A DNA stretch of 31,289 bases from a virus. Taxonomy: Duplodnaviria > Heunggongvirae > Uroviricota > Caudoviricetes. Position 1 is the first letter of the stretch; each line of letters begins with the position of its first letter. The position numbers and the translations under genes are program-made. Under the pieces are notes generated by a model. The model did no database searches. It saw nothing but the letters and a program-made list of their open reading frames with translations, and was not told the DNA's origin. Where the stretch lies: the IMG/VR virus record IMGVR_UViG_2734482594_000020. The stretch is one strand, 5' to 3'. Of the stretch, positions 5,997 through 24,334 are shown in pieces.

Positions 5997-6689
5997 TTAA
6001 TTGTGTCGCTTAAGGGTTTGTGACTGACTGATTAAGACCTTTCCAAAGACCATAAACCGGTGTTCGTTTTCGCTGGTAATTCCCCATTCGCGGTAAATCT
6101 GATTATCAGAAATTACCAGCAGTTTATCAGGTATCATTTGCAGTCGTTTGACGTAAATTTTATCATCAAAACCAAATACATATATACCATCCCCATCAAA
6201 CTGATTGATACTGATATCAACGAAGATGAGATCTCCTGGCTCAATGGTTGGACACATACTGTCCCCACGAACGTTGATAACTTTAATGTGATTTGCTGGT
6301 CGTCCACCAAACATCGATACAGCATTATCAGTTCTGTATTCAATGGCATGAATCACATCAATGACATCACCGCCCTGGATAAGGCCATTTCCCGCACTGG
6401 CACTGACATCCAGCATTTCAATACGGAATACATCCTTCACCTGCGCAACATCCTCACTAATACTGTTTTTACATACAGTATTACTTTTGAGGTCTGAGGT
6501 AAAGAGATCAGCAATATCAACACCTAAGCTCCTGGCAATATTACTCAGGGCTTGTTCAGTGAATTGTTTCTGCTTACCTGTTTCGAGGCGCGAGATATTC
6601 GCCGCATCCACTCCTATTGCTTCAGCGAGATCGGCGATTTTCATGTTCTTCGCCTGGCGAAGTTGTCTGACTCGATTTCCTATGTTCAT
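5997..6689 (-). CDS. CI-like repressor (HTH_XRE N-terminus, LexA-like S24 peptidase C-terminus)
   Basis: N-terminal HTH ('IADLAEAIGVDAANISRLETGK'); C-terminal 'GDSM' serine and 'VKRL' lysine of the self-cleaving S24 fold; divergent from a Cro-like gene. Confidence 0.9.
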   Translation of the reverse strand: MNIGNRVRQLRQAKNMKIADLAEAIGVDAANISRLETGKQKQFTEQALSNIARSLGVDIADLFTSDLKSNTVCKNSISEDVAQVKDVFRIEMLDVSASAGNGLIQGGDVIDVIHAIEYRTDNAVSMFGGRPANHIKVINVRGDSMCPTIEPGDLIFVDISINQFDGDGIYVFGFDDKIYVKRLQMIPDKLLVISDNQIYREWGITSENEHRFMVFGKVLISQSQTLKRHN

Positions 6690-6786: not shown

Positions 6787-7047
6787 ATGCAATCACCATT
6801 ACGGAATGTGCGTAAGGCGCACGGATTTACTTTGCAGCATGTTGCTGCGGGCGTTCAGGTCAATCCAGCGACGCTGAGTCGTATTGAAAGACTGGAACAA
6901 ATTCCATCTGTCGATCTTGCAGAACGTCTGGCCAATTTTTTTAAGGGTGAAATCAGCGAAATGCAGATTCTTTATCCGGCACGTTTTCAATCTAGCCAAA
7001 ACCAGAATGGGTTTAAACCACAGGAACAGGAGGTAAGCCGTGGGTAA
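6787..7047 (+). CDS. Cro-like HTH (XRE) regulator
   Basis: HTH 'LQHVAAGVQVNPATLSRIERLEQ'; RBS GGAGG 4 nt upstream; divergent from the repressor. Confidence 0.75.
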   Translation: MQSPLRNVRKAHGFTLQHVAAGVQVNPATLSRIERLEQIPSVDLAERLANFFKGEISEMQILYPARFQSSQNQNGFKPQEQEVSRG

Positions 7048-7591
7048 GCATCATTGGAAAGTGGAAAAACAACCTGAGTGGTACGTGAAAGCTGTCAGAA
7101 AAACTATCGCGGCATTGCCAGGGGGTTACGCTGAAGCTGCTGACTGGCTGGATGTAACAGAGAACGCTTTATTCAACCGCCTTCGTGCAGATGGCGATCA
7201 GATTTTCCCGTTGGGATGGGCAATGGTTTTACAGCGTGCTGCTGGCAATCACCACATTGCGGATGCTGTCGCACAGTCTGCTGGTGGGGTGTTTGTATCA
7301 CTTCCTGAAATTGAGGAAGTAGAGAACGCCGATATCAACCAGCGCCTGCTGGAGGTCATTGAACAGATCGGCAGTTATTCCAGACAGATTCGTTCAGCAA
7401 TTGAAGACGGTGTAGTGGAACCGCATGAGAAGACAGCAATTAATGATGAATTGTATCTGTCAATTTCGAAGCTCCAGGAGCATGCGGCACTGGTCTACAA
7501 AATTTTCTGCGCTCCAGAAAAGAGTGACGCCCGCGAGTGTGCAGCTCCGGGCGTCGTGGCGTTTTGTGTCTGTGGAGAAACTAACGCATGA
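7040..7591 (+). CDS. CII-like / YdaT-like lysogeny regulator
   Basis: GTG start with AGGAGG 6 nt upstream; the position immediately after cro is typical of the CII(CP76)/YdaT family; assignment by synteny and general resemblance only. Confidence 0.45.
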   Translation: MGKHHWKVEKQPEWYVKAVRKTIAALPGGYAEAADWLDVTENALFNRLRADGDQIFPLGWAMVLQRAAGNHHIADAVAQSAGGVFVSLPEIEEVENADINQRLLEVIEQIGSYSRQIRSAIEDGVVEPHEKTAINDELYLSISKLQEHAALVYKIFCAPEKSDARECAAPGVVAFCVCGETNA

Positions 7592-8736
7592 ACAGTTTAA
7601 CGGCAAATAACCGTTTGTCGCAACAGCTGGTGGTCAGTGTCGCTGCACACCTGTTGTTACGGCATGAATGCAGATTACCAAATCACCTGGCTGTAAGTAA
7701 CCACAGAGAACTTTACCTGACTGTGGGGGGCGAGTTGTGCAGGAACTTAACCGCTGGTTTCGTGACGGAAGAGGACTTTATGTTCATGTTATTCGTTGGG
7801 AGCCAGAAACACAGCGCGTTATCTATCTTCGCAAAGACTACCCGCATGAGTGCTTTAGTCCTTTGTGGAAATTCAGGCGTGATTTTGTTGAGTGTGAAGG
7901 ACCACCAGCACATTGATTCTGCCATTCCGGGCCGTTACACTGTTCAGGCACCTTATAAAGCGGGTGCCGGGATTGGCGTCCTGGAATTGCATACGGCGAC
8001 AATTGGCGCGTTAGCGTCTTTTTTGTTGCTACAACTCAGCTATACCCAAATTATGGTGGGCTGGGTGGGGGCACCGAAAGGTGCGCCGGTTTCCGTATGC
8101 GCCGGTTACGCCAACCCTGCTCAGTTCACCACCAGCGAAATTGGCGTTTCCGGTGGTGGAAGTTATCCATTGCATACGGAGGCTGCCATCATGGCTACGA
8201 TCCCTGCCTTAGTTCAACCTGAACTTTGCATTATTGCAGACAAAGTTGTTACTTCTTCTCTGGCTGTTGCTAGTTATTTCGGCAAACAACACAAAAACGT
8301 CATTCAAAAAATTGCGTCTCTTGAATGCTCTGCCGAATTTACTGAGCTGAATTTCCAGCTCAGTGAGTACATCGACGCATCAGGCCGCAAACTACCTTGC
8401 TATCAAATAACCCGCGACGGCTTTGCGTTTCTTGCTATGGGTTTCACGGGTAAACGTGCTGCCCAGTTCAAAGAGGCATACATCAATGCCTTTAACCAGA
8501 TGGAGAAACAGCTTTCAAAGCCCGCTGTACCGAGCGACGTTGCACATAACGCCAGCGTTCTCTGTTCCTACATTTCATCAATTCATCAGGTCTGGCTGCA
8601 GCAGCTTTATCCTATGTTGGCAAAAGCCGAATCTCCGCTGGCTGTTAGCTTATATGACTATATTAATGATGCTTCGGCGCTGGCCTGCCTCATAAATTTG
8701 TCGCTGAACCCTTCAGAGGTAAGGGGGCGCAAATGA
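7588..8736 (+). CDS. Rha/ORF6N-family phage regulatory protein (domain in residues ~202-300); start uncertain, alternative internal start at 8191
   Basis: 382-codon open frame with ATGA coupling to the upstream gene and GGAG before the ATG at 7588; the Rha-like motif 'SSLAVASYFGKQHKNVIQKI' lies after the internal ATG at 8191, which has its own GGAGG RBS. Confidence 0.5.
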   Translation: MNSLTANNRLSQQLVVSVAAHLLLRHECRLPNHLAVSNHRELYLTVGGELCRNLTAGFVTEEDFMFMLFVGSQKHSALSIFAKTTRMSALVLCGNSGVILLSVKDHQHIDSAIPGRYTVQAPYKAGAGIGVLELHTATIGALASFLLLQLSYTQIMVGWVGAPKGAPVSVCAGYANPAQFTTSEIGVSGGGSYPLHTEAAIMATIPALVQPELCIIADKVVTSSLAVASYFGKQHKNVIQKIASLECSAEFTELNFQLSEYIDASGRKLPCYQITRDGFAFLAMGFTGKRAAQFKEAYINAFNQMEKQLSKPAVPSDVAHNASVLCSYISSIHQVWLQQLYPMLAKAESPLAVSLYDYINDASALACLINLSLNPSEVRGRK

Positions 8737-8957
8737 TCCGGAATATTTTCAAACGTTTTACCAATCAGACTTTCCGTTGTCCTCGTCCGGGTCAGTGGTA
8801 CACCACGCCTGCAGGGCATGTTCTACGTGTTAGCCTGGTTGACCGTGAATGTCAGAAGGTGATTTGTGAACCGCTGGGCCGTAATTACCGCGTCAGTATG
8901 CCGCTTATAGCCTTTCGCTCCGGAAAAAACATGAAGCATCTCGGAGGTGCAGCATGA
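8733..8957 (+). CDS. small hypothetical protein (74 aa)
   Basis: ATGA overlaps at both ends couple it to the flanking genes. Confidence 0.45.
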   Translation: MIRNIFKRFTNQTFRCPRPGQWYTTPAGHVLRVSLVDRECQKVICEPLGRNYRVSMPLIAFRSGKNMKHLGGAA

Positions 8958-9772
8958 GTATGGAGCTGATGGTTAAAGCGATGAAAATTCGAGTGGGTAA
9001 TCCATTGCGAAAACTGGTTCTGATCAAGCTGGCTGATAATGCCAGCGATCAGGGTGAGTGCTGGCCCAGCTACCAGCATATTGCTGACCAGTGCGAGATT
9101 AGCAAACGTTCTGTGATGAATCATATTGCGGCCCTCTGTGAGTCCGGGCTGGTAAAAAAAGTCACCCGGAAAGGTGAAAAAGGTAACTCAAGTAATATCT
9201 ATCTTCTTCATCTTGATGGTGCAGGAGATTCACTAGGGGGTAGTGCAAATAATTCACTATCTGGTGCAGCAAATTCACCAGGTAGTGCAGGAGTTGCACC
9301 AGGGGGTAGTGCAGGAGATTCACCCAGAACCAGTCACTCTTTTGAACCAGTCAAAGAACCAGTCAATGAACCAATAGCTGTTGGTGCATCTGCTGATGAG
9401 TCTGTGCGAGTTCGTTCAAACCGACCGGAATACTCTCCGGAGTTTGAGCAGGCATGGCTGGCATACCCCAAACGTGCTGGTGGCAATTCAAAATCAGCAG
9501 CCTTCAAAGCCTGGAAAGCCCGTTTGAATGAGGGGGTAAACCCCGAAACCATGCTGGAAGGTGTGAAACGCTACTCGTGCTGGGTATCTGCGATGGGTAA
9601 CAGCGGCACACAATTTGTGAAACAGGCTGTCACGTTCTTTGGTCCGGATCGTCATTTCGAAGAATCCTGGGAAGTTCCTGCGGTATCTGCAGCCAGACGC
9701 GAGGACCCGTACTTCAAAGCCAGTTACGACAACGTGGACTACAGCCAGATCCCGGCAGGATTCAGGGGGTGA
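8954..9772 (+). CDS. replication initiator / replisome-organizer-like protein (N-terminal winged helix, low-complexity linker carrying iterons)
   Basis: N-terminal HTH resembling phage replication initiators; RBS GGAGG; five iteron-like repeats inside the linker-coding region, arranged as in lambda O/ori. Confidence 0.55.
   Translation: MSMELMVKAMKIRVGNPLRKLVLIKLADNASDQGECWPSYQHIADQCEISKRSVMNHIAALCESGLVKKVTRKGEKGNSSNIYLLHLDGAGDSLGGSANNSLSGAANSPGSAGVAPGGSAGDSPRTSHSFEPVKEPVNEPIAVGASADESVRVRSNRPEYSPEFEQAWLAYPKRAGGNSKSAAFKAWKARLNEGVNPETMLEGVKRYSCWVSAMGNSGTQFVKQAVTFFGPDRHFEESWEVPAVSAARREDPYFKASYDNVDYSQIPAGFRG
9219..9376 (+). repeat. iteron-like direct repeats (candidate origin of replication)
   Basis: Five copies of GTGCA-N5-TtCAC at 9219, 9243, 9264, 9285 and 9309 (21-24 bp spacing), then four copies of GAACCAgTCA at 9327, 9344, 9356 and 9368. 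Confidence 0.5.
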
Positions 9773-9774
9773 TT

Positions 9775-10263
9775 ATGAGTCTTTTGAATGAAGTTCAGAA
9801 ATTCATTGAAGCCCATCCGGGGTGTACTTCCGGAGACATTGCGGATGCTTTTGCAGGTTACTCACGGCAGCGCGTTCTGCAGTCAGCAAGCAAGTTACGT
9901 CAGAGTGGGCGTGTGGATCACCGTTGTGAAGGAGATACACGCAGACATTTCCCGCGCCTGACTGAGAGAGCGCAGGAACCGGAACCACAACCAGTTCGAG
10001 AAACCAGACCTGTGCGCAATTTCTATGTCGGCACTAACGACCCGCGGGAGATTTTGTGCCGGACCCGCCAGGCTGAAGAACTGGAGTCCAGGGGCTTATT
10101 TCGTCGTGCTGCAACCGTGTGGATGGCGGCATTCCGTGAAAGCCACTCCCAGCCAGAACGAAACAATTTTCTGGCGCGTCGTGAACGGTGTTTACGGAAA
10201 AGCAGTAAGCGGGCTGCATCGGGTGAAGAGTGGTATCTGTCAGGGAATTACGTGGGGGCTTAA
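9775..10263 (+). CDS. PerC-family transcriptional regulator-like protein
   Basis: C-terminal 'ELESRGLFRRAATVWMAAF...ARRERC' resembles the PerC/Pch signature as I recall it; ATG at 9775 with AGGGGG upstream (the track's GTG at 9769 is an alternative). Confidence 0.4.
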   Translation: MSLLNEVQKFIEAHPGCTSGDIADAFAGYSRQRVLQSASKLRQSGRVDHRCEGDTRRHFPRLTERAQEPEPQPVRETRPVRNFYVGTNDPREILCRTRQAEELESRGLFRRAATVWMAAFRESHSQPERNNFLARRERCLRKSSKRAASGEEWYLSGNYVGA

Positions 10264-10916
10264 TGAGTAATAAATATTGCCAGGCGCTGGCGGAACTGCG
10301 GAACAAACCAGCCCATGAACTGAAGGAAGTGGGCGATCAGTGGCGCACGCCGGACAACATTTTCTGGGGAATTAACACCCTGTTTGGCCCGTTTGTTCTG
10401 GATCTGTTCACTGACGGTGATAACGCCAAATGTGCTGCGTATTACACGGCGGAAGACAACGCGCTGGCGCATGACTGGTCAGAACGCCTTGCGGAGCTTA
10501 AAGGTGCTGCCTTTGGTAATCCCCCATACAGCCGCGCCAGTCAGCATGAGGGGCAATACATCACCGGCATGCGTTACATCATGAAGCATGCCAGTGCCAT
10601 GCGTGATAAAGGCGGGCGCTATGTTTTCCTGATCAAAGCTGCCACCAGCGAAGTGTGGTGGCCGGAAGATGCAGATCATATTGCTTTTATTCGCGGGCGT
10701 ATTGGTTTTGAACTGCCTGCCTGGTTTATCCCGAAGGATGAGAAGCAGGTGCCGACAGGCGCTTTCTTCGCTGGTGCTATTGCTGTTTTCGACAAGACCT
10801 GGAAGGGACCGGCAATCAGCTACATCGGGCGCGATGAACTTGAGGCATGTGGTGAGGCCTTTCTGGCGCAGGTTCGCCAGCAGGCAGAAAAACTGGTCAG
10901 GGAGATGGCGGCATGA
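10263..10916 (+). CDS. phage Dam-like DNA N6-adenine methyltransferase (NPPY motif)
   Basis: Catalytic 'GNPPYS' motif; TAATG overlap with the upstream stop; no adjacent restriction endonuclease. Confidence 0.7.
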   Translation: MSNKYCQALAELRNKPAHELKEVGDQWRTPDNIFWGINTLFGPFVLDLFTDGDNAKCAAYYTAEDNALAHDWSERLAELKGAAFGNPPYSRASQHEGQYITGMRYIMKHASAMRDKGGRYVFLIKAATSEVWWPEDADHIAFIRGRIGFELPAWFIPKDEKQVPTGAFFAGAIAVFDKTWKGPAISYIGRDELEACGEAFLAQVRQQAEKLVREMAA

Positions 10917-11239
10917 CGACGTTAACTCAATGCCAGCAGCAGGTGCTGGATATGCTGATTTCTTACCAGCAAGAGCGTGGCTTTCCGCCAACCAATCAGG
11001 AGGTGGCAACCATGCTGGGATACCGTTCGGTGAATGCAGCGGTGGAGCATCTTCGCGCACTGGAGAAAAAAGGCGTCATCACGATAAAGCGTGGCGTGGC
11101 CCGGGGGATCACGCTTCATACCGCAGTGAAGGACGACGACAGCGAAGCGGTCGGGATTATCCGCGCACTGCTTGCCGGTGAGGAAAACGCCAGGCTGCGT
11201 GCAACCCACTGGTTACATGAGAGGGACCTGAAAGTATGA
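10913..11239 (+). CDS. LexA N-terminal DNA-binding-domain protein lacking the S24 protease domain
   Basis: Aligns by eye along residues 5-65 with the E. coli LexA winged-helix domain ('RSVNAAVEHLRALEKKGVITI' versus 'RSPNAAEEHLKALARKGVIEI'); ends at 108 aa. Confidence 0.7.
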   Translation: MTTLTQCQQQVLDMLISYQQERGFPPTNQEVATMLGYRSVNAAVEHLRALEKKGVITIKRGVARGITLHTAVKDDDSEAVGIIRALLAGEENARLRATHWLHERDLKV

Positions 11240-14989: not shown

Positions 14990-16042
14990 ATGAAAAATAC
15001 TGTAAAAATAAACAGTGTTGATTTAATCAACGCTGATTGCCTGCATTTTATTCAGTCCCTGCCTGATAACTCCATTGATCTGATTGTTACCGATCCGCCG
15101 TACTTCAAAGTGAAGCCCAACGGCTGGGACAATCAGTGGAAAGGGGACGAAGATTACCTGAAGTGGCTGGACCACTGTCTGGCCCAGTTCTGGCGGGTAC
15201 TGAAACCAGCCGGAAGCCTTTACCTGTTCTGTGGGCATCGCCTGGCATCTGATATTGAGATCATGATGCGTGAACGTTTCAACGTGCTTAACCATATCAT
15301 CTGGGCGAAGCCGTCCGGACGTTGGAATGGGTGTAATAAAGAAAGTCTGCGTGCATATTTTCCTGCCACAGAGCGCGTTCTGTTTGCTGAACATTACCAG
15401 GGGCCATATCGCGGCAAAAGTGACGGCTATGCGGCAAAAGAAAGGGAACTCAAACAGCACATAATGGCACCGCTGATTTCGTATTTCAGGGATGCTCGTG
15501 CCGAACTGGGTATAACGGCAAAACAAATTGCCGAAGCCACAGGTAAGAAAAATATGGTTTCCCACTGGTTTGGTGCCAGTCAGTGGCAGTTGCCGAATGA
15601 GGCTGACTATCGGAAGTTACAGGCACTGTTTTCCCGTATAGCGGCAGAGAAGTTTCAGGAACAACAACTGGAACAACCACACCACCAGCTGGTGGCATCT
15701 TATGATTCACTGAATCGCAAATATTCTGAATTGCTGGATGAGTTTAAATCTCTCCGGCGCTATTTCTCCGTATCAGTCTCCGTGCCTTATACCGATGTCT
15801 GGATGCATAAACCCGTTCAGTTCTACCCGGGGAAACATCCGTGTGAGAAACCGGCGGATATGCTCAGGCAAATAATCAATGCCAGTAGTCGACCTGGTGA
15901 TCTGGTTGCTGATTTTTTTATGGGATCCGGTTCCACAATAAAAGCAGCAATGGCGCTGGGGCGTCGGGCCTTAGGTGTTGAGCTTGAGTCAGAGCGGTTT
16001 AATCAGACAGTGAAAGAGATAAACGAGCTGGTGGGGAAATAA
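14990..16042 (+). CDS. orphan DNA methyltransferase (N6-adenine/N4-cytosine class, DPPY motif)
   Basis: 'LIVTDPPYF' catalytic motif near the N-terminus and C-terminal 'FFMGSGST' AdoMet-binding motif; no restriction partner nearby. Confidence 0.7.
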
Positions 16043-22329: not shown

Positions 22330-24334
22330 CCGCAGTACACCGACGACCAGTCCGAAGAATAATTCCTGGTTCAGGATGCAGGCTGGTCACCAGAGTGACG
22401 CGGATATTTATATTTATGACGAGATTGGTTTCTGGGGTGTTACAGCGAAGCAGTTTATCAGTGATCTGAATGCACTGGGCGATATCACCCACATTAATCT
22501 CCATATCAATTCACCGGGTGGCGATGTCTTTGAAGGCATCGCCATTTTTAATGCGCTGAAAACACATGGTGCGTCCATTACCGTTTATGTCGACGGTGTG
22601 GCGGCATCAATGGCGTCGGTCATTGCGATGGTGGGAAACCCGGTCATTATGCCGGAAAACACCTTCATGATGATTCATAAACCATTTGGCTTTACGGGCG
22701 GTGATGCGGAGGACATGCGCACCTATGCCGACCTGCTCGATAAAGTTGAGGCGGTTCTGTTACCCGCTTATGCACAGAAAACCGGGAAAACCACCGATGA
22801 AATTGCTGCCATGCTGGCGGATGAGACCTGGATGTCCGGTGCCGAATGTCTGGCACAGGGATTTGCTGATCAGGTGACGCCAGCCGTTAAGGCAATGGCA
22901 TGTATTCAGTCAAAACGTACAGAGGAATTTAAAAAGATGCCGGAATACATTCGAAACATGATTACTCCGCCACGCAACAGTGCTCCACGCGTACAGGATA
23001 ATGAACCTGCAGCTTCCCGGACGCCAGTGCAGGCAGCAGCACCCGTGGTGGATGAAAACAGTATCCGTGCGCAGGTACTGGCAGAGCAAAAAGCGCGTGT
23101 AAACGGTATTAATGATCTGTTTGCCATGTTTGGCGGGCGTTATCAGACGCTGCAGGCTCAGTGTCTTGCCGATCCTGAATGTTCGCTGGAGCAGGCCCGC
23201 GAAAAGCTGTTGAACGAGATGGGGCGCGAGTCCACGCCATCCAATAAAAATACCCCGGCTCATATTTATGCCGGTAACGGTAATTTTGTGGGGGACGGGA
23301 TCCGCCAGGCGCTGATGGCGCGTGCCGGATTTGAAAAAACCGAACGTGATAATGTCTACAACGGGATGACCCTGCGTGAATATGCCCGTATGTCACTGAC
23401 TGAACGGGGTATTGGGGTTTCCAGTTATAACCCGATGCAGATGGTCGGTGCGGCGTTCACACACAGTACGTCTGACTTCGGTAATATTCTGCTGGATGTT
23501 GCGAACAAAGCCATTCTGCAGGGCTGGGAAGATGCCCCTGAAACCTATGAACAGTGGACGCGGAAAGGTCAGTTGTCTGATTTTAAAATTGCCCATCGTG
23601 TGGGTATGGGGGGCTTCAGTGCTCTGCGTCAGGTGCGTGAAGGGGCGGAATATAAATACGTTACCACCGGAGATAAACAGGCCACTATTGCACTGGCGAC
23701 CTATGGCGAGCTGTTCAGTATCACCCGTCAGGCCATTATCAATGATGATCTGAATATGCTGACCGATGTCCCGATGAAACTGGGCCGTGCGGCGAAATCC
23801 ACTATTGCCGATCTGGTTTATGCCATTCTGACGTCTAACCCGAAAATCTCCACAGATAATGTAAGTCTGTTCGATAAAGCGAAACATGCAAACGTACTGG
23901 AGAGCGCTGCAATGGACGTGGCATCGCTGGATAAAGCCCGCCAGTTGATGCGCGTTCAGAAAGAGGGTGAGCGTCATCTGAATATTCGTCCTGCGTTCGT
24001 ACTGGTACCGACGGCGATGGAGTCTGTTGCTAACCAGGTCATTCGCTCCTCAAGTGTCAAGGGGGCTGACATTAACGCCGGTATTATTAACCCGGTGAAA
24101 GATTTTGCGACCGTTATTGCAGAGCCTCGTCTTGATGATAACAGCCAGACCACCTTCTACCTGGCTGCGTCCAAAGGCTCCGATACGATTGAAGTGGCTT
24201 ATCTCAACGGTGTGGATACGCCATATATTGATCAGATGGAGGGCTTCAGTGTGGATGGCGTGACAACGAAAGTGCGTATTGACGCCGGTGTCGCGCCAGT
24301 TGATCACCGCGGTCTGGTGAAATGTACGGCGTAA
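22307..24334 (+). CDS. tripartite capsid gene: ClpP-like prohead protease, scaffold and major capsid protein in one ORF (Gifsy-2 type)
   Basis: N-terminal ClpP/S14-like region ('INSPGGDVFEGIAIFNA...MIHKP'), a charged middle segment and a large C-terminal capsid-like domain; GTG at 22307 with AAGGAGG 5 nt upstream. Confidence 0.75.
   Translation: MPQRNDSSRSTPTTSPKNNSWFRMQAGHQSDADIYIYDEIGFWGVTAKQFISDLNALGDITHINLHINSPGGDVFEGIAIFNALKTHGASITVYVDGVAASMASVIAMVGNPVIMPENTFMMIHKPFGFTGGDAEDMRTYADLLDKVEAVLLPAYAQKTGKTTDEIAAMLADETWMSGAECLAQGFADQVTPAVKAMACIQSKRTEEFKKMPEYIRNMITPPRNSAPRVQDNEPAASRTPVQAAAPVVDENSIRAQVLAEQKARVNGINDLFAMFGGRYQTLQAQCLADPECSLEQAREKLLNEMGRESTPSNKNTPAHIYAGNGNFVGDGIRQALMARAGFEKTERDNVYNGMTLREYARMSLTERGIGVSSYNPMQMVGAAFTHSTSDFGNILLDVANKAILQGWEDAPETYEQWTRKGQLSDFKIAHRVGMGGFSALRQVREGAEYKYVTTGDKQATIALATYGELFSITRQAIINDDLNMLTDVPMKLGRAAKSTIADLVYAILTSNPKISTDNVSLFDKAKHANVLESAAMDVASLDKARQLMRVQKEGERHLNIRPAFVLVPTAMESVANQVIRSSSVKGADINAGIINPVKDFATVIAEPRLDDNSQTTFYLAASKGSDTIEVAYLNGVDTPYIDQMEGFSVDGVTTKVRIDAGVAPVDHRGLVKCTA

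Follow-up and report, generated by a model that had tools for sequence, protein, structure and literature searches.

A putative lambda-type replication origin within the initiator gene of an Escherichia coli lambdoid prophage

The DNA analysed here, a 31,289-bp stretch catalogued as IMG/VR record IMGVR_UViG_2734482594_000020 and referred to below as the window, is a lambdoid prophage of Escherichia coli that carries a gene for a 272-residue replication initiator. Within this gene lie five dyad-symmetric 15-bp iterons followed by a short tandem repeat, and comparison with related loci leads us to propose that this segment (positions 9219-9377) probably forms the core of a lambda-type replication origin that lies within the gene of its own initiator.

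In the mechanism we envisage, dimers of the initiator's N-terminal winged-helix domain would bind the five iterons (GTGMA-N5-TKCAC), which a spacing of 21-24 bp would place on one face of the helix. The resulting nucleoprotein complex would act on the adjacent block of AACCAGTCA repeats (9324-9377), the presumed unwinding or helicase-loading element, and the initiator would recruit host DnaC-DnaB directly through a C-terminal IPAGFRG tail that copies the tail of DnaT. The features concerned are as follows.

8954-9772, + strand: replication initiator gene, 272 amino acids (aa), containing the candidate origin
8954-9214, + strand: encodes the N-terminal winged-helix domain (aa 1-87), presumed to bind the iterons; recognition helix approximately ISKRSVMNH
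9150-9217: left flank, the most A+T-rich DNA beside the array, at about 65% A+T (GC 0.35 at 9150-9209), a possible alternative unwinding region
9219-9233: iteron 1, GTGCAGGAGATTCAC
9243-9257: iteron 2, GTGCAAATAATTCAC
9264-9278: iteron 3, GTGCAGCAAATTCAC
9285-9299: iteron 4, GTGCAGGAGTTGCAC, with perfect palindromic arms GTGCA/TGCAC, matching on both strands
9309-9323: iteron 5, GTGCAGGAGATTCAC, always 2 bp 5' of the conserved block
9324-9360: family-invariant block, CC AGAACCAGTCACTCTTTTGAACCAGTCAAAGAACC, with an information content near 2 bits at most positions
9327-9377: GAACCAGTCA repeat element, candidate unwinding or helicase-loading element
9431-9682, + strand: encodes the helical C-terminal domain (aa 160-243), presumed to recruit a partner or the helicase
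9743-9769, + strand: C-terminal tail SQIPAGFRG, matching the host DnaT C-terminus SQIPPGFRG

An iteron array in the linker-coding part of the initiator gene

Five copies of the motif GTGCANNNNNTKCAC (GTGCA-N5-TKCAC) lie on the + strand, starting at 9219, 9243, 9264, 9285 and 9309, and the rest of the window has none. Only 0.22 occurrences are expected by chance, and none of 100 shuffled sequences reached the observed count. Start-to-start spacings are 24, 21, 21 and 24 bp, which bears out the five repeats at two-turn spacing described in a first-pass annotation of this DNA. The array is the sole substantial local direct-repeat family in the whole window.

The structure predicted by AlphaFold2 (AF2) comprises a confident winged helix (residues 1-87), a disordered stretch (residues 91-157; predicted local distance difference test, pLDDT, 24-49), a helical C-domain (residues 160-243; pLDDT 83-94) and then a disordered tail. 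The iterons occupy codons 89-124, in the linker between the two confident domains where pLDDT stays below 50, and all of the repeats lie inside the open reading frame (ORF) at 8954-9772, in the linker-coding part to which the annotation had assigned them. Iteron number is polymorphic among near-identical E. coli genes: proteins of 242, 250, 272, 294 and 302 aa correspond to one, two, five, eight and nine copies, with five by far the commonest. Short alternative-frame ORFs over the array, at 9243-9377 (+) and 9162-9323 (-), for example VVQEIHQGVVQEIHPEPVTLLNQSKNQSMNQ, arise as by-products of the window's repeats; some relatives use those frames for coding.

Beyond the iterons, exact copies of GAACCAGTCA stand at 9327-9336, 9344-9353 and 9356-9365 (spacings of 17 and 12 bp), and a fourth copy, GAACCAATAG at 9368-9377, is degenerate, agreeing at 8 of 10 positions. 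The four such repeats reported at first pass are thus three exact copies and one imperfect one. An inverted copy of the block, ACTGGTTCTG at 9013-9022, was taken as a chance occurrence because the codons there are not conserved across the family.

Iterons and block are conserved as DNA

We compared the locus with two sets of relatives: 79 initiator loci retrieved through protein motifs from one-genome-per-species contigs (an 80th matched in the C-domain only), and more than 120 viral contigs retrieved through the block sequence. Hosts covered include Escherichia, Salmonella, Klebsiella, Kosakonia, Enterobacter, Erwinia, Xenorhabdus, Pseudomonas, Aeromonas, Shewanella, Marinomonas and Vibrio-related bacteria, among others. 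Arrays in 196 related loci occupy the same position, with 3-7 copies spaced 20-24 bp apart (21-24 bp in all but one). Spacings of 22 or 23 bp, which shift the reading frame between iterons, are found in 76 of the 196 loci; within the unbiased motif-retrieved set, 37 of 64 arrays change frame, and two frames are used in 52 of the 92 unique GTGMA-type arrays. Inside single arrays, the same 15-mer is read as SAGDSP or GAGDSL in one frame and as VQEIHQ or VQQIHQ in the other.

A logo built from 445 iterons assigns 1.9-2.0 bits to eight of the ten arm positions, about 1.0-1.2 bits to the two M/K positions and 0.3-1.0 bits to the five central ones, a pattern that reads as the signature of a dimer-binding site and not of recent duplication. 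Other subfamilies carry different half-sites that are still palindromic (TGCCA/TGGCA, GGGCA/TGCCC, GTGAC/GTCAC, GGTCA/TGACC and GTGTA/TACAC), and their recognition helices differ along with the half-sites (ISKRSVMNH, IGRSTVKLH, CSKSAVR(N/D)H and IDRSTVRKH).

The block, too, is conserved. Its sequence AGAACCAGTCACTCTTTTGAACCAGTCAnnGAACC is present in every family member, 2 bp past the last iteron, and the AACCAGTCA block of about 35 bp was found in all 80 sequences retrieved by protein motifs. In these 80 sequences the third codon positions of the block are invariant and the first and second positions vary (T/I, H/N, F/S/L/P). In the motif-retrieved set, block and N-domain hardly differ in amino-acid identity (75% versus 76%), whereas nucleotide identity is 87% versus 69%, and codon identity at identical residues is 90.3% versus 44.5%. 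A rare AGA codon within the block is conserved in 136 of 136 sequences, Pseudomonas phages included. Two frameshifted initiator pseudogenes, in Erwinia rhapontici (L025) and Pseudomonas bharatica (L035), keep iterons and block intact, and a megablast comparison of a Vibrio phage with the window returned a DNA match across 9266-9361 only. Together, these data establish that the iterons and the block are under selection as DNA, and that the linker peptide is dictated by the DNA signals.

The same short repeat recurs outside the family. Initiators of the phiV10 type, whose N-domain is distantly HTH_36-like, carry CCCAAAAACGGGA iterons (up to six or seven copies) followed by CAGAACCAGTCATATAACCAGTCATATAACCAGTCATTTAACCAAG, which consists of the same AACCAGTCA 9-mer repeats at a 12-bp phase but read in another frame, giving the peptide NQSYNQSYNQSF (NQSYNQS); a third reading frame is used in locus L284. 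The phiV10 type forms a second large initiator family (phage phiV10 itself, L206 2760-2960; L207-L282; and many IMG/VR contigs). In Stx2_14040 (Eru7; L203 2300-2500), the linker encodes GGGAAAC iterons, after which comes a short repeat of another kind, ACAGAGAATAC. The Stx2_14040 initiator combines an unrelated N-domain with the same C-domain as the window's, and DnaC-like and DnaB-like genes come next. Because this initiator of another superfamily has a different second repeat, the second repeat set seems to go with the N-domain superfamily.

By analogy with the 13-mers of iteron plasmids, which Rep melts and binds as single strands, the block may be an unwinding or helicase-loading element that is recognised sequence-specifically; we consider the chances that it is and that it is not to be about equal. 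A wider proposal joins two ideas, namely that AACCAGTCA repeats would be the initiation element of all HTH_36-type phage initiators and that an IPxGFRG tail would dock DnaC-DnaB for DnaT and initiators alike. Here a conserved surface of the initiator, or a host factor, would read the AACCAGTCA repeats, probably as single-stranded DNA, in the manner of DnaA-trios and plasmid 13-mers. We offer this joint proposal tentatively and think it rather unlikely to hold as a whole.

The initiator and its relatives

The initiator matches the Pfam family HTH_36 (PF13730; E=1.6e-11, 44.3 bits against a cut-off of 25) and, over residues 3-271, PHROG 270 'replication initiation protein' (E=1.7e-87); the PHROG label for its relatives is 'O-like'. 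The lambda O family, Phage_rep_O (PF04492), is absent among its Pfam hits at E<=0.01. Its identity to the 'replication protein' of SfV, mEp460, cdtI and Stx2a_WGPS2 phages is 98-99%. The gene shares 88-99% nucleotide identity with those of SfV (orf39), ST64B (sb42), cdtI, mEp460, Ayreon and many Shiga toxin (Stx) phages of the Stx2a and Stx2c types, and it is 98.5% identical over its full length to that of the Eru6 reference, Stx2a_WGPS2 (AP012537.1). With the gene and its flanks as query, a partial match was obtained in 2,816 of 5,426 complete E. coli genomes and a nearly complete one in 841. The cryptic prophage CPS-53 of E. coli K-12 retains just the last ~75 nt of the gene, together with yfdN and yfdM, and has therefore lost the iterons and the block.

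Lambda O divides its labour between an N-domain that binds the origin and a C-domain that binds P. Among relatives of the window initiator, the type of C-domain pairs with the gene that follows: an unknown 265-aa protein in 32 of 32 cases, DnaC/IstB-like ATPases in 11 of 13, the lambda P family (PF06992) in 11 of 12, and, for two further types, DnaB-like helicases in 10 of 10. These types were clustered without the first 16 residues of the domain, since inclusion of the block peptide over-merged them, and cluster 0 is still heterogeneous. The C-domain and tail together are thus a partner-specific module that co-varies in relatives with a downstream DnaC-like, lambda-P-like or DnaB-like gene. 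Iteron classes, in turn, cut across the C-domain clusters. The initiators follow a three-part grammar, in which a specificity module and a partner module with a short C-terminal tail are connected by an invariant joint.

In 33 loci, the window included, a PerC-like gene comes next and a loader is absent; in sister loci the same slot holds a loader, either DnaC-like or lambda-P-like, or else a DnaB-like helicase. The rest of the window contains no gene for a helicase, loader or primase, and its left arm carries no replication gene. The same is true of the plaque-forming phage mEp460 (98% identical; complete at 44.5 kb), which has no helicase, loader or primase gene and a single annotated replication gene. 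Initiator-only modules are present in viable phages, mEp460 and also SPN1S. The first-pass annotation had noted that no P, DnaB or DnaC homologue is apparent downstream, which holds for the window and equally for complete viable relatives, and its suggestion that replication may differ from that of lambda can now be narrowed to the step of helicase recruitment.

A DnaT-like tail on the initiator

The initiator tail is identical to the end of E. coli DnaT at eight of nine residues (BLASTP). Whole-protein similarity to DnaT was rejected, as the last nine residues alone align. IPxGFRG is the conserved end of 107 DnaT orthologues, in which the preceding ~20 residues are variable (sequences compared: E. 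coli dnaT, L082 2479-3018, and P0214-P0333). On the phage side, the IPxGFRG tail is found on three unrelated C-domain types: that of the window, a second type, and the true DnaT-CTD type (C-terminal domain of DnaT) of SPN1S, which has the tail IPPGFRG and no loader.

Where a loader is encoded beside a GFRG-tailed initiator, it is 48-51% identical to E. coli DnaC (241 residues in six full-gene loci). Loaders beside other tails (CNW, ENLNF, xNF and others) are mostly 29-39% identical to DnaC in the ATPase part, and those of the CNW and ENLNF groups, some with enterobacterial hosts, are 29-32% identical. Another initiator tail, besides CNW and ENLNF, is HWNSPEGWKDFI. In phiV10 a DnaT-like core ends in the tail HWNSPEAWEDFL and is followed by a P-like gene, and the same tail accompanies lambda-P-like partners in the window initiator's own family. 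A tail of the form HWNSPE(G/A)W(K/E)DF(I/L) occurs on two C-domain types with lambda-P-like downstream genes (C-domain cluster 3; L206 2506-3333).

In E. coli, dnaT lies directly upstream of dnaC. The dnaT-dnaC pair is reminiscent of the phage arrangement in which a DnaC-like loader follows a GFRG-tailed initiator. From these sequence associations we suggest that IPxGFRG could serve as the peptide on which DnaC or DnaB-DnaC docks, and that the phage could borrow the host loader through its IPAGFRG tail; we regard this suggestion as plausible but somewhat doubtful. DnaT segment 154-179 is structurally undescribed (PMC4132743), and neither that study nor a 2026 cryo-EM study (PMC13377028) describes a role for the DnaT tail.

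Alternative readings and opposing evidence

Several observations weigh against the segment 9219-9377 being an origin that works in the proposed way. The literature we searched yielded no binding, footprint, autonomous-replication or marker-frequency data for this initiator family. The block is only 57-60% A+T, far below classical unwinding elements, and the left flank at 9150-9217 is more A+T-rich than the block in the window. Close relatives with just one or two iterons (the 242- and 250-aa proteins) recur on many contigs; either few copies may suffice, or those prophages may be origin-defective. Co-variation of half-site and recognition helix is partly expected, because the two lie within 300 bp of each other and are co-inherited. 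The C-domain of the initiator has no Pfam, PDB or fold match. As to the tail, two single loci with non-GFRG tails have loaders 44% and 48% identical to DnaC, the link between tail and DnaC is correlative and spans few, possibly related lineages, and in the proposal of the 2026 cryo-EM study DnaB/DnaC is recruited by the N-domain of DnaT and not by its tail (PMC13377028).

Linkage does not explain why both arms of a half-site pair change symmetrically. Over about 390 bp to each side, A+T content peaks in the block (0.58-0.60), high-GC relatives included, and the left flank shows no family-wide conservation as DNA and is on average only mildly A+T-enriched. No DnaA boxes or promoter-like sites were found at 8.6-10 kb, and the sole DnaA-box match in the window is at 22768. 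GC skew was uninformative as an origin marker; it follows the direction of transcription, with its minimum near cI.

Among the alternatives, it is unlikely that the AACCAGTCA block serves mainly as a recombination linker for swapping N-domain/iteron modules against C-domain/loader modules. The block lies exactly at the mosaic joint, one iteron class occurs with several C-domain types and vice versa, and conserved boundary sequences have been proposed for lambdoid mosaicism, all of which would suit such a role. However, recombination alone cannot hold ~35 bp near invariant despite strong codon-usage differences, in a block that spans phages of E. coli, Pseudomonas, Vibrio, Aeromonas, Shewanella and Marinomonas. 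Further, a tandem 10-mer of variable copy number and 12-bp phasing is more like a protein- or single-stranded-DNA-recognition element, and the block is also present in the phiV10 family amid different surrounding sequence. A linker role and an initiation role of the block are not mutually exclusive.

We give a small chance to the repeats being initiator sites for autoregulation, copy control (handcuffing) or a transcription roadblock, with replication starting elsewhere. The sites are inside the initiator's own transcription unit, and plasmid iterons also act in copy control. Yet the 31-kb window offers no other repeat array or DnaA box cluster, the lambda layout is copied (iterons at the N/C joint, a second conserved element, and a loader gene in relatives), and the invariant neighbouring block is hard to explain through autoregulation.

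Last, that the repeats are the mere DNA shadow of a low-complexity peptide linker (G/S-A-x-x-S-P-G; EPVxEPV) with no role as DNA is hardly credible: the window's five iterons do share one frame and encode a Gly/Ser/Ala/Pro-rich segment that AF2 leaves disordered, but relatives keep the 21-24 bp phasing across the frame changes counted above (76/196 loci; 52/92 unique arrays), synonymous positions are fixed although amino acids vary, different genes use the AACCAGTCA repeats in three reading frames, and pseudogenes retain iterons and block. Because one motif gives both SAGDSP and VQEIHQ within single arrays, a repetitive peptide alone, which the first-pass annotation had named as an explanation that would undo its proposal, is excluded.

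Relation to known replication systems

The first-pass annotation had likened the arrangement to lambda ori inside O. The likeness is strengthened by conservation at the DNA level across genera and frames, by dyad symmetry and two-turn phasing, by the joint change of sites and recognition helix, and by the position of the array at the joint of specificity and partner modules. As in lambda, dyad-symmetric iterons lie in the linker part of the initiator gene between an origin-binding and a partner-binding domain, the candidate origin follows cro and cII within the early rightward operon, DnaA boxes are absent, and some relatives of the window initiator precede a true lambda P family gene (PF06992). 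Unlike lambda O, the window initiator lacks a Phage_rep_O match and has an unrelated C-domain; the iterons have another sequence and number five; no P gene is present; and the invariant AACCAGTCA block (57-60% A+T) stands in place of lambda's very A+T-rich tract of ~40 bp.

Iteron plasmids (RK2 with TrfA, F with RepE, pPS10 with RepA) likewise combine a winged-helix initiator with direct iterons beside short tandem repeats, and the model of melted, single-stranded 13-mers borrowed above for the AACCAGTCA repeats comes from them. The window's candidate origin differs in being intragenic, in having no DnaA boxes nearby and second repeats that are not very A+T-rich, and in an initiator unrelated to Rep in sequence. 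Initiators of the phiV10/epsilon15 type ('primosomal protein') share an HTH_36-like N-domain, intragenic iterons followed by AACCAGTCA 12-bp repeats, and swappable C-modules; they differ in their CCCAAAAACGGGA iterons, the other repeat frame and a true DnaT-CTD C-domain, and phiV10 has another tail and a P-like partner. With E. coli DnaT-DnaC the window initiator shares the IPxGFRG end, and in some relatives a GFRG-tailed initiator with a DnaC-like gene mirrors the dnaT-dnaC operon. Only the last nine residues are shared with DnaT, however, and the place to which PriA/PriB recruit DnaT is the fork and not an origin.

For many lambdoid initiators, intragenic iterons have already been predicted in reviews of phage replication modules, which also describe modules made up of an initiator only, so the general idea is not new. 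As far as we could check, what appears to be new is the frame-independent conservation, the AACCAGTCA element common to initiator families, and the grammar that links tails to partners.

The N-terminus of lambda O has been reported as HTH_36-like by HHpred (PMC5509034). DopC joins an HTH_36 N-domain to a C-domain that is DnaT-C-like, and its partner is a P-like protein (Brezellec et al. 2017, PMC5509034). DopC and DopE, which are domesticated lambda-like genes, follow the same modular logic; unlike in the window, with its intact iterons and block, no iterons were detected in dopC by the authors of that study (PMC5509034). The Eru6 replication unit of Stx phages was defined by Fagerlund et al. 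2022 (PMC8951638) by a Rha-family gene and an HTH_36 gene beside cI/cro together with identity to the reference Stx2a_WGPS2, and the window module is of the Eru6 type, with the same order of Rha, small ORF and HTH_36 protein.

In the Eru papers (e.g. PMC8951638) and database records we found no description of an origin, iterons or block and no rep_origin feature; the Eru papers mention no iterons, and 'origin' never means replication origin there. The SfIV paper offers a module comparison only, and a literature search for the repeat sequences returned unrelated primers only. Iterons described in the Pf-5 paper were set aside, as they belong to a genomic island and not to the initiator family.

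Implications

In kind, the finding is what would be expected of a lambdoid early-right operon. The module is among the commonest replication modules of E. coli prophages and is also present in Stx2a and Stx2c phages (Eru6); replication capacity influences toxin output in Stx phages. Its DNA signature, iterons followed by AGAACCAGTCAC...GAACC, would locate candidate origins in hundreds of gammaproteobacterial phages. It is also a clear case in which DNA signals dictate the sequence of a protein linker, with one motif read in two or three frames.

The shared DnaT-like tail provides a testable hypothesis for how DnaB-DnaC may be brought to the primosome, a step called unknown (PMC13377028, PMC4132743); the cryo-EM study uses that word of the DnaB/DnaC recruitment mechanism (PMC13377028). 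If both linked readings, of the AACCAGTCA repeats and of the tail, were true, the phage would need just one protein of its own to replicate, mimicking the restart primosome, and the dnaT-dnaC operon would look like the domesticated half of such a phage module.

Prophage setting

The genes around the initiator gene follow a lambdoid early-region order.

5997-6689, - strand: cI-like repressor
6787-7047: cro
7040-7591: CII-like gene (Phage_CP76)
7588-8736, + strand: Rha-family gene
8733-8957: small ORF between the Rha-family gene and the initiator gene
9769-10263, + strand: PerC-like gene (Pfam PerC, E=1.8e-08), in the slot where relatives encode a helicase loader or helicase

On the 3' side of the initiator gene the order is PerC-like, Dam-like, LexA-DNA-binding-domain, RusA, KilA-N, DUF968 and Q. 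The Rha-family ORF (7588-8736, +) is long, at 382 aa, with the Rha domain restricted to residues 218-311; because PHROG matches begin at residue 61 or later, its true start may be downstream. An ORF of 108 aa at 10913-11239 (+) consists almost entirely of a LexA DNA-binding domain (residues 1-65), and no peptidase (S24) domain was detected in it. The window has two DNA methyltransferase genes, one Dam-like (10230-10916, +) in the early operon and one of the N6_N4_Mtase family (14990-16042, +) near the lysis/late region. A Rv2179c-like 3'-5' exoribonuclease ORF (1568-2143, -) lies in the early-left region, and a SocA/Panacea antitoxin-domain ORF (1-573, +) sits at the window edge.

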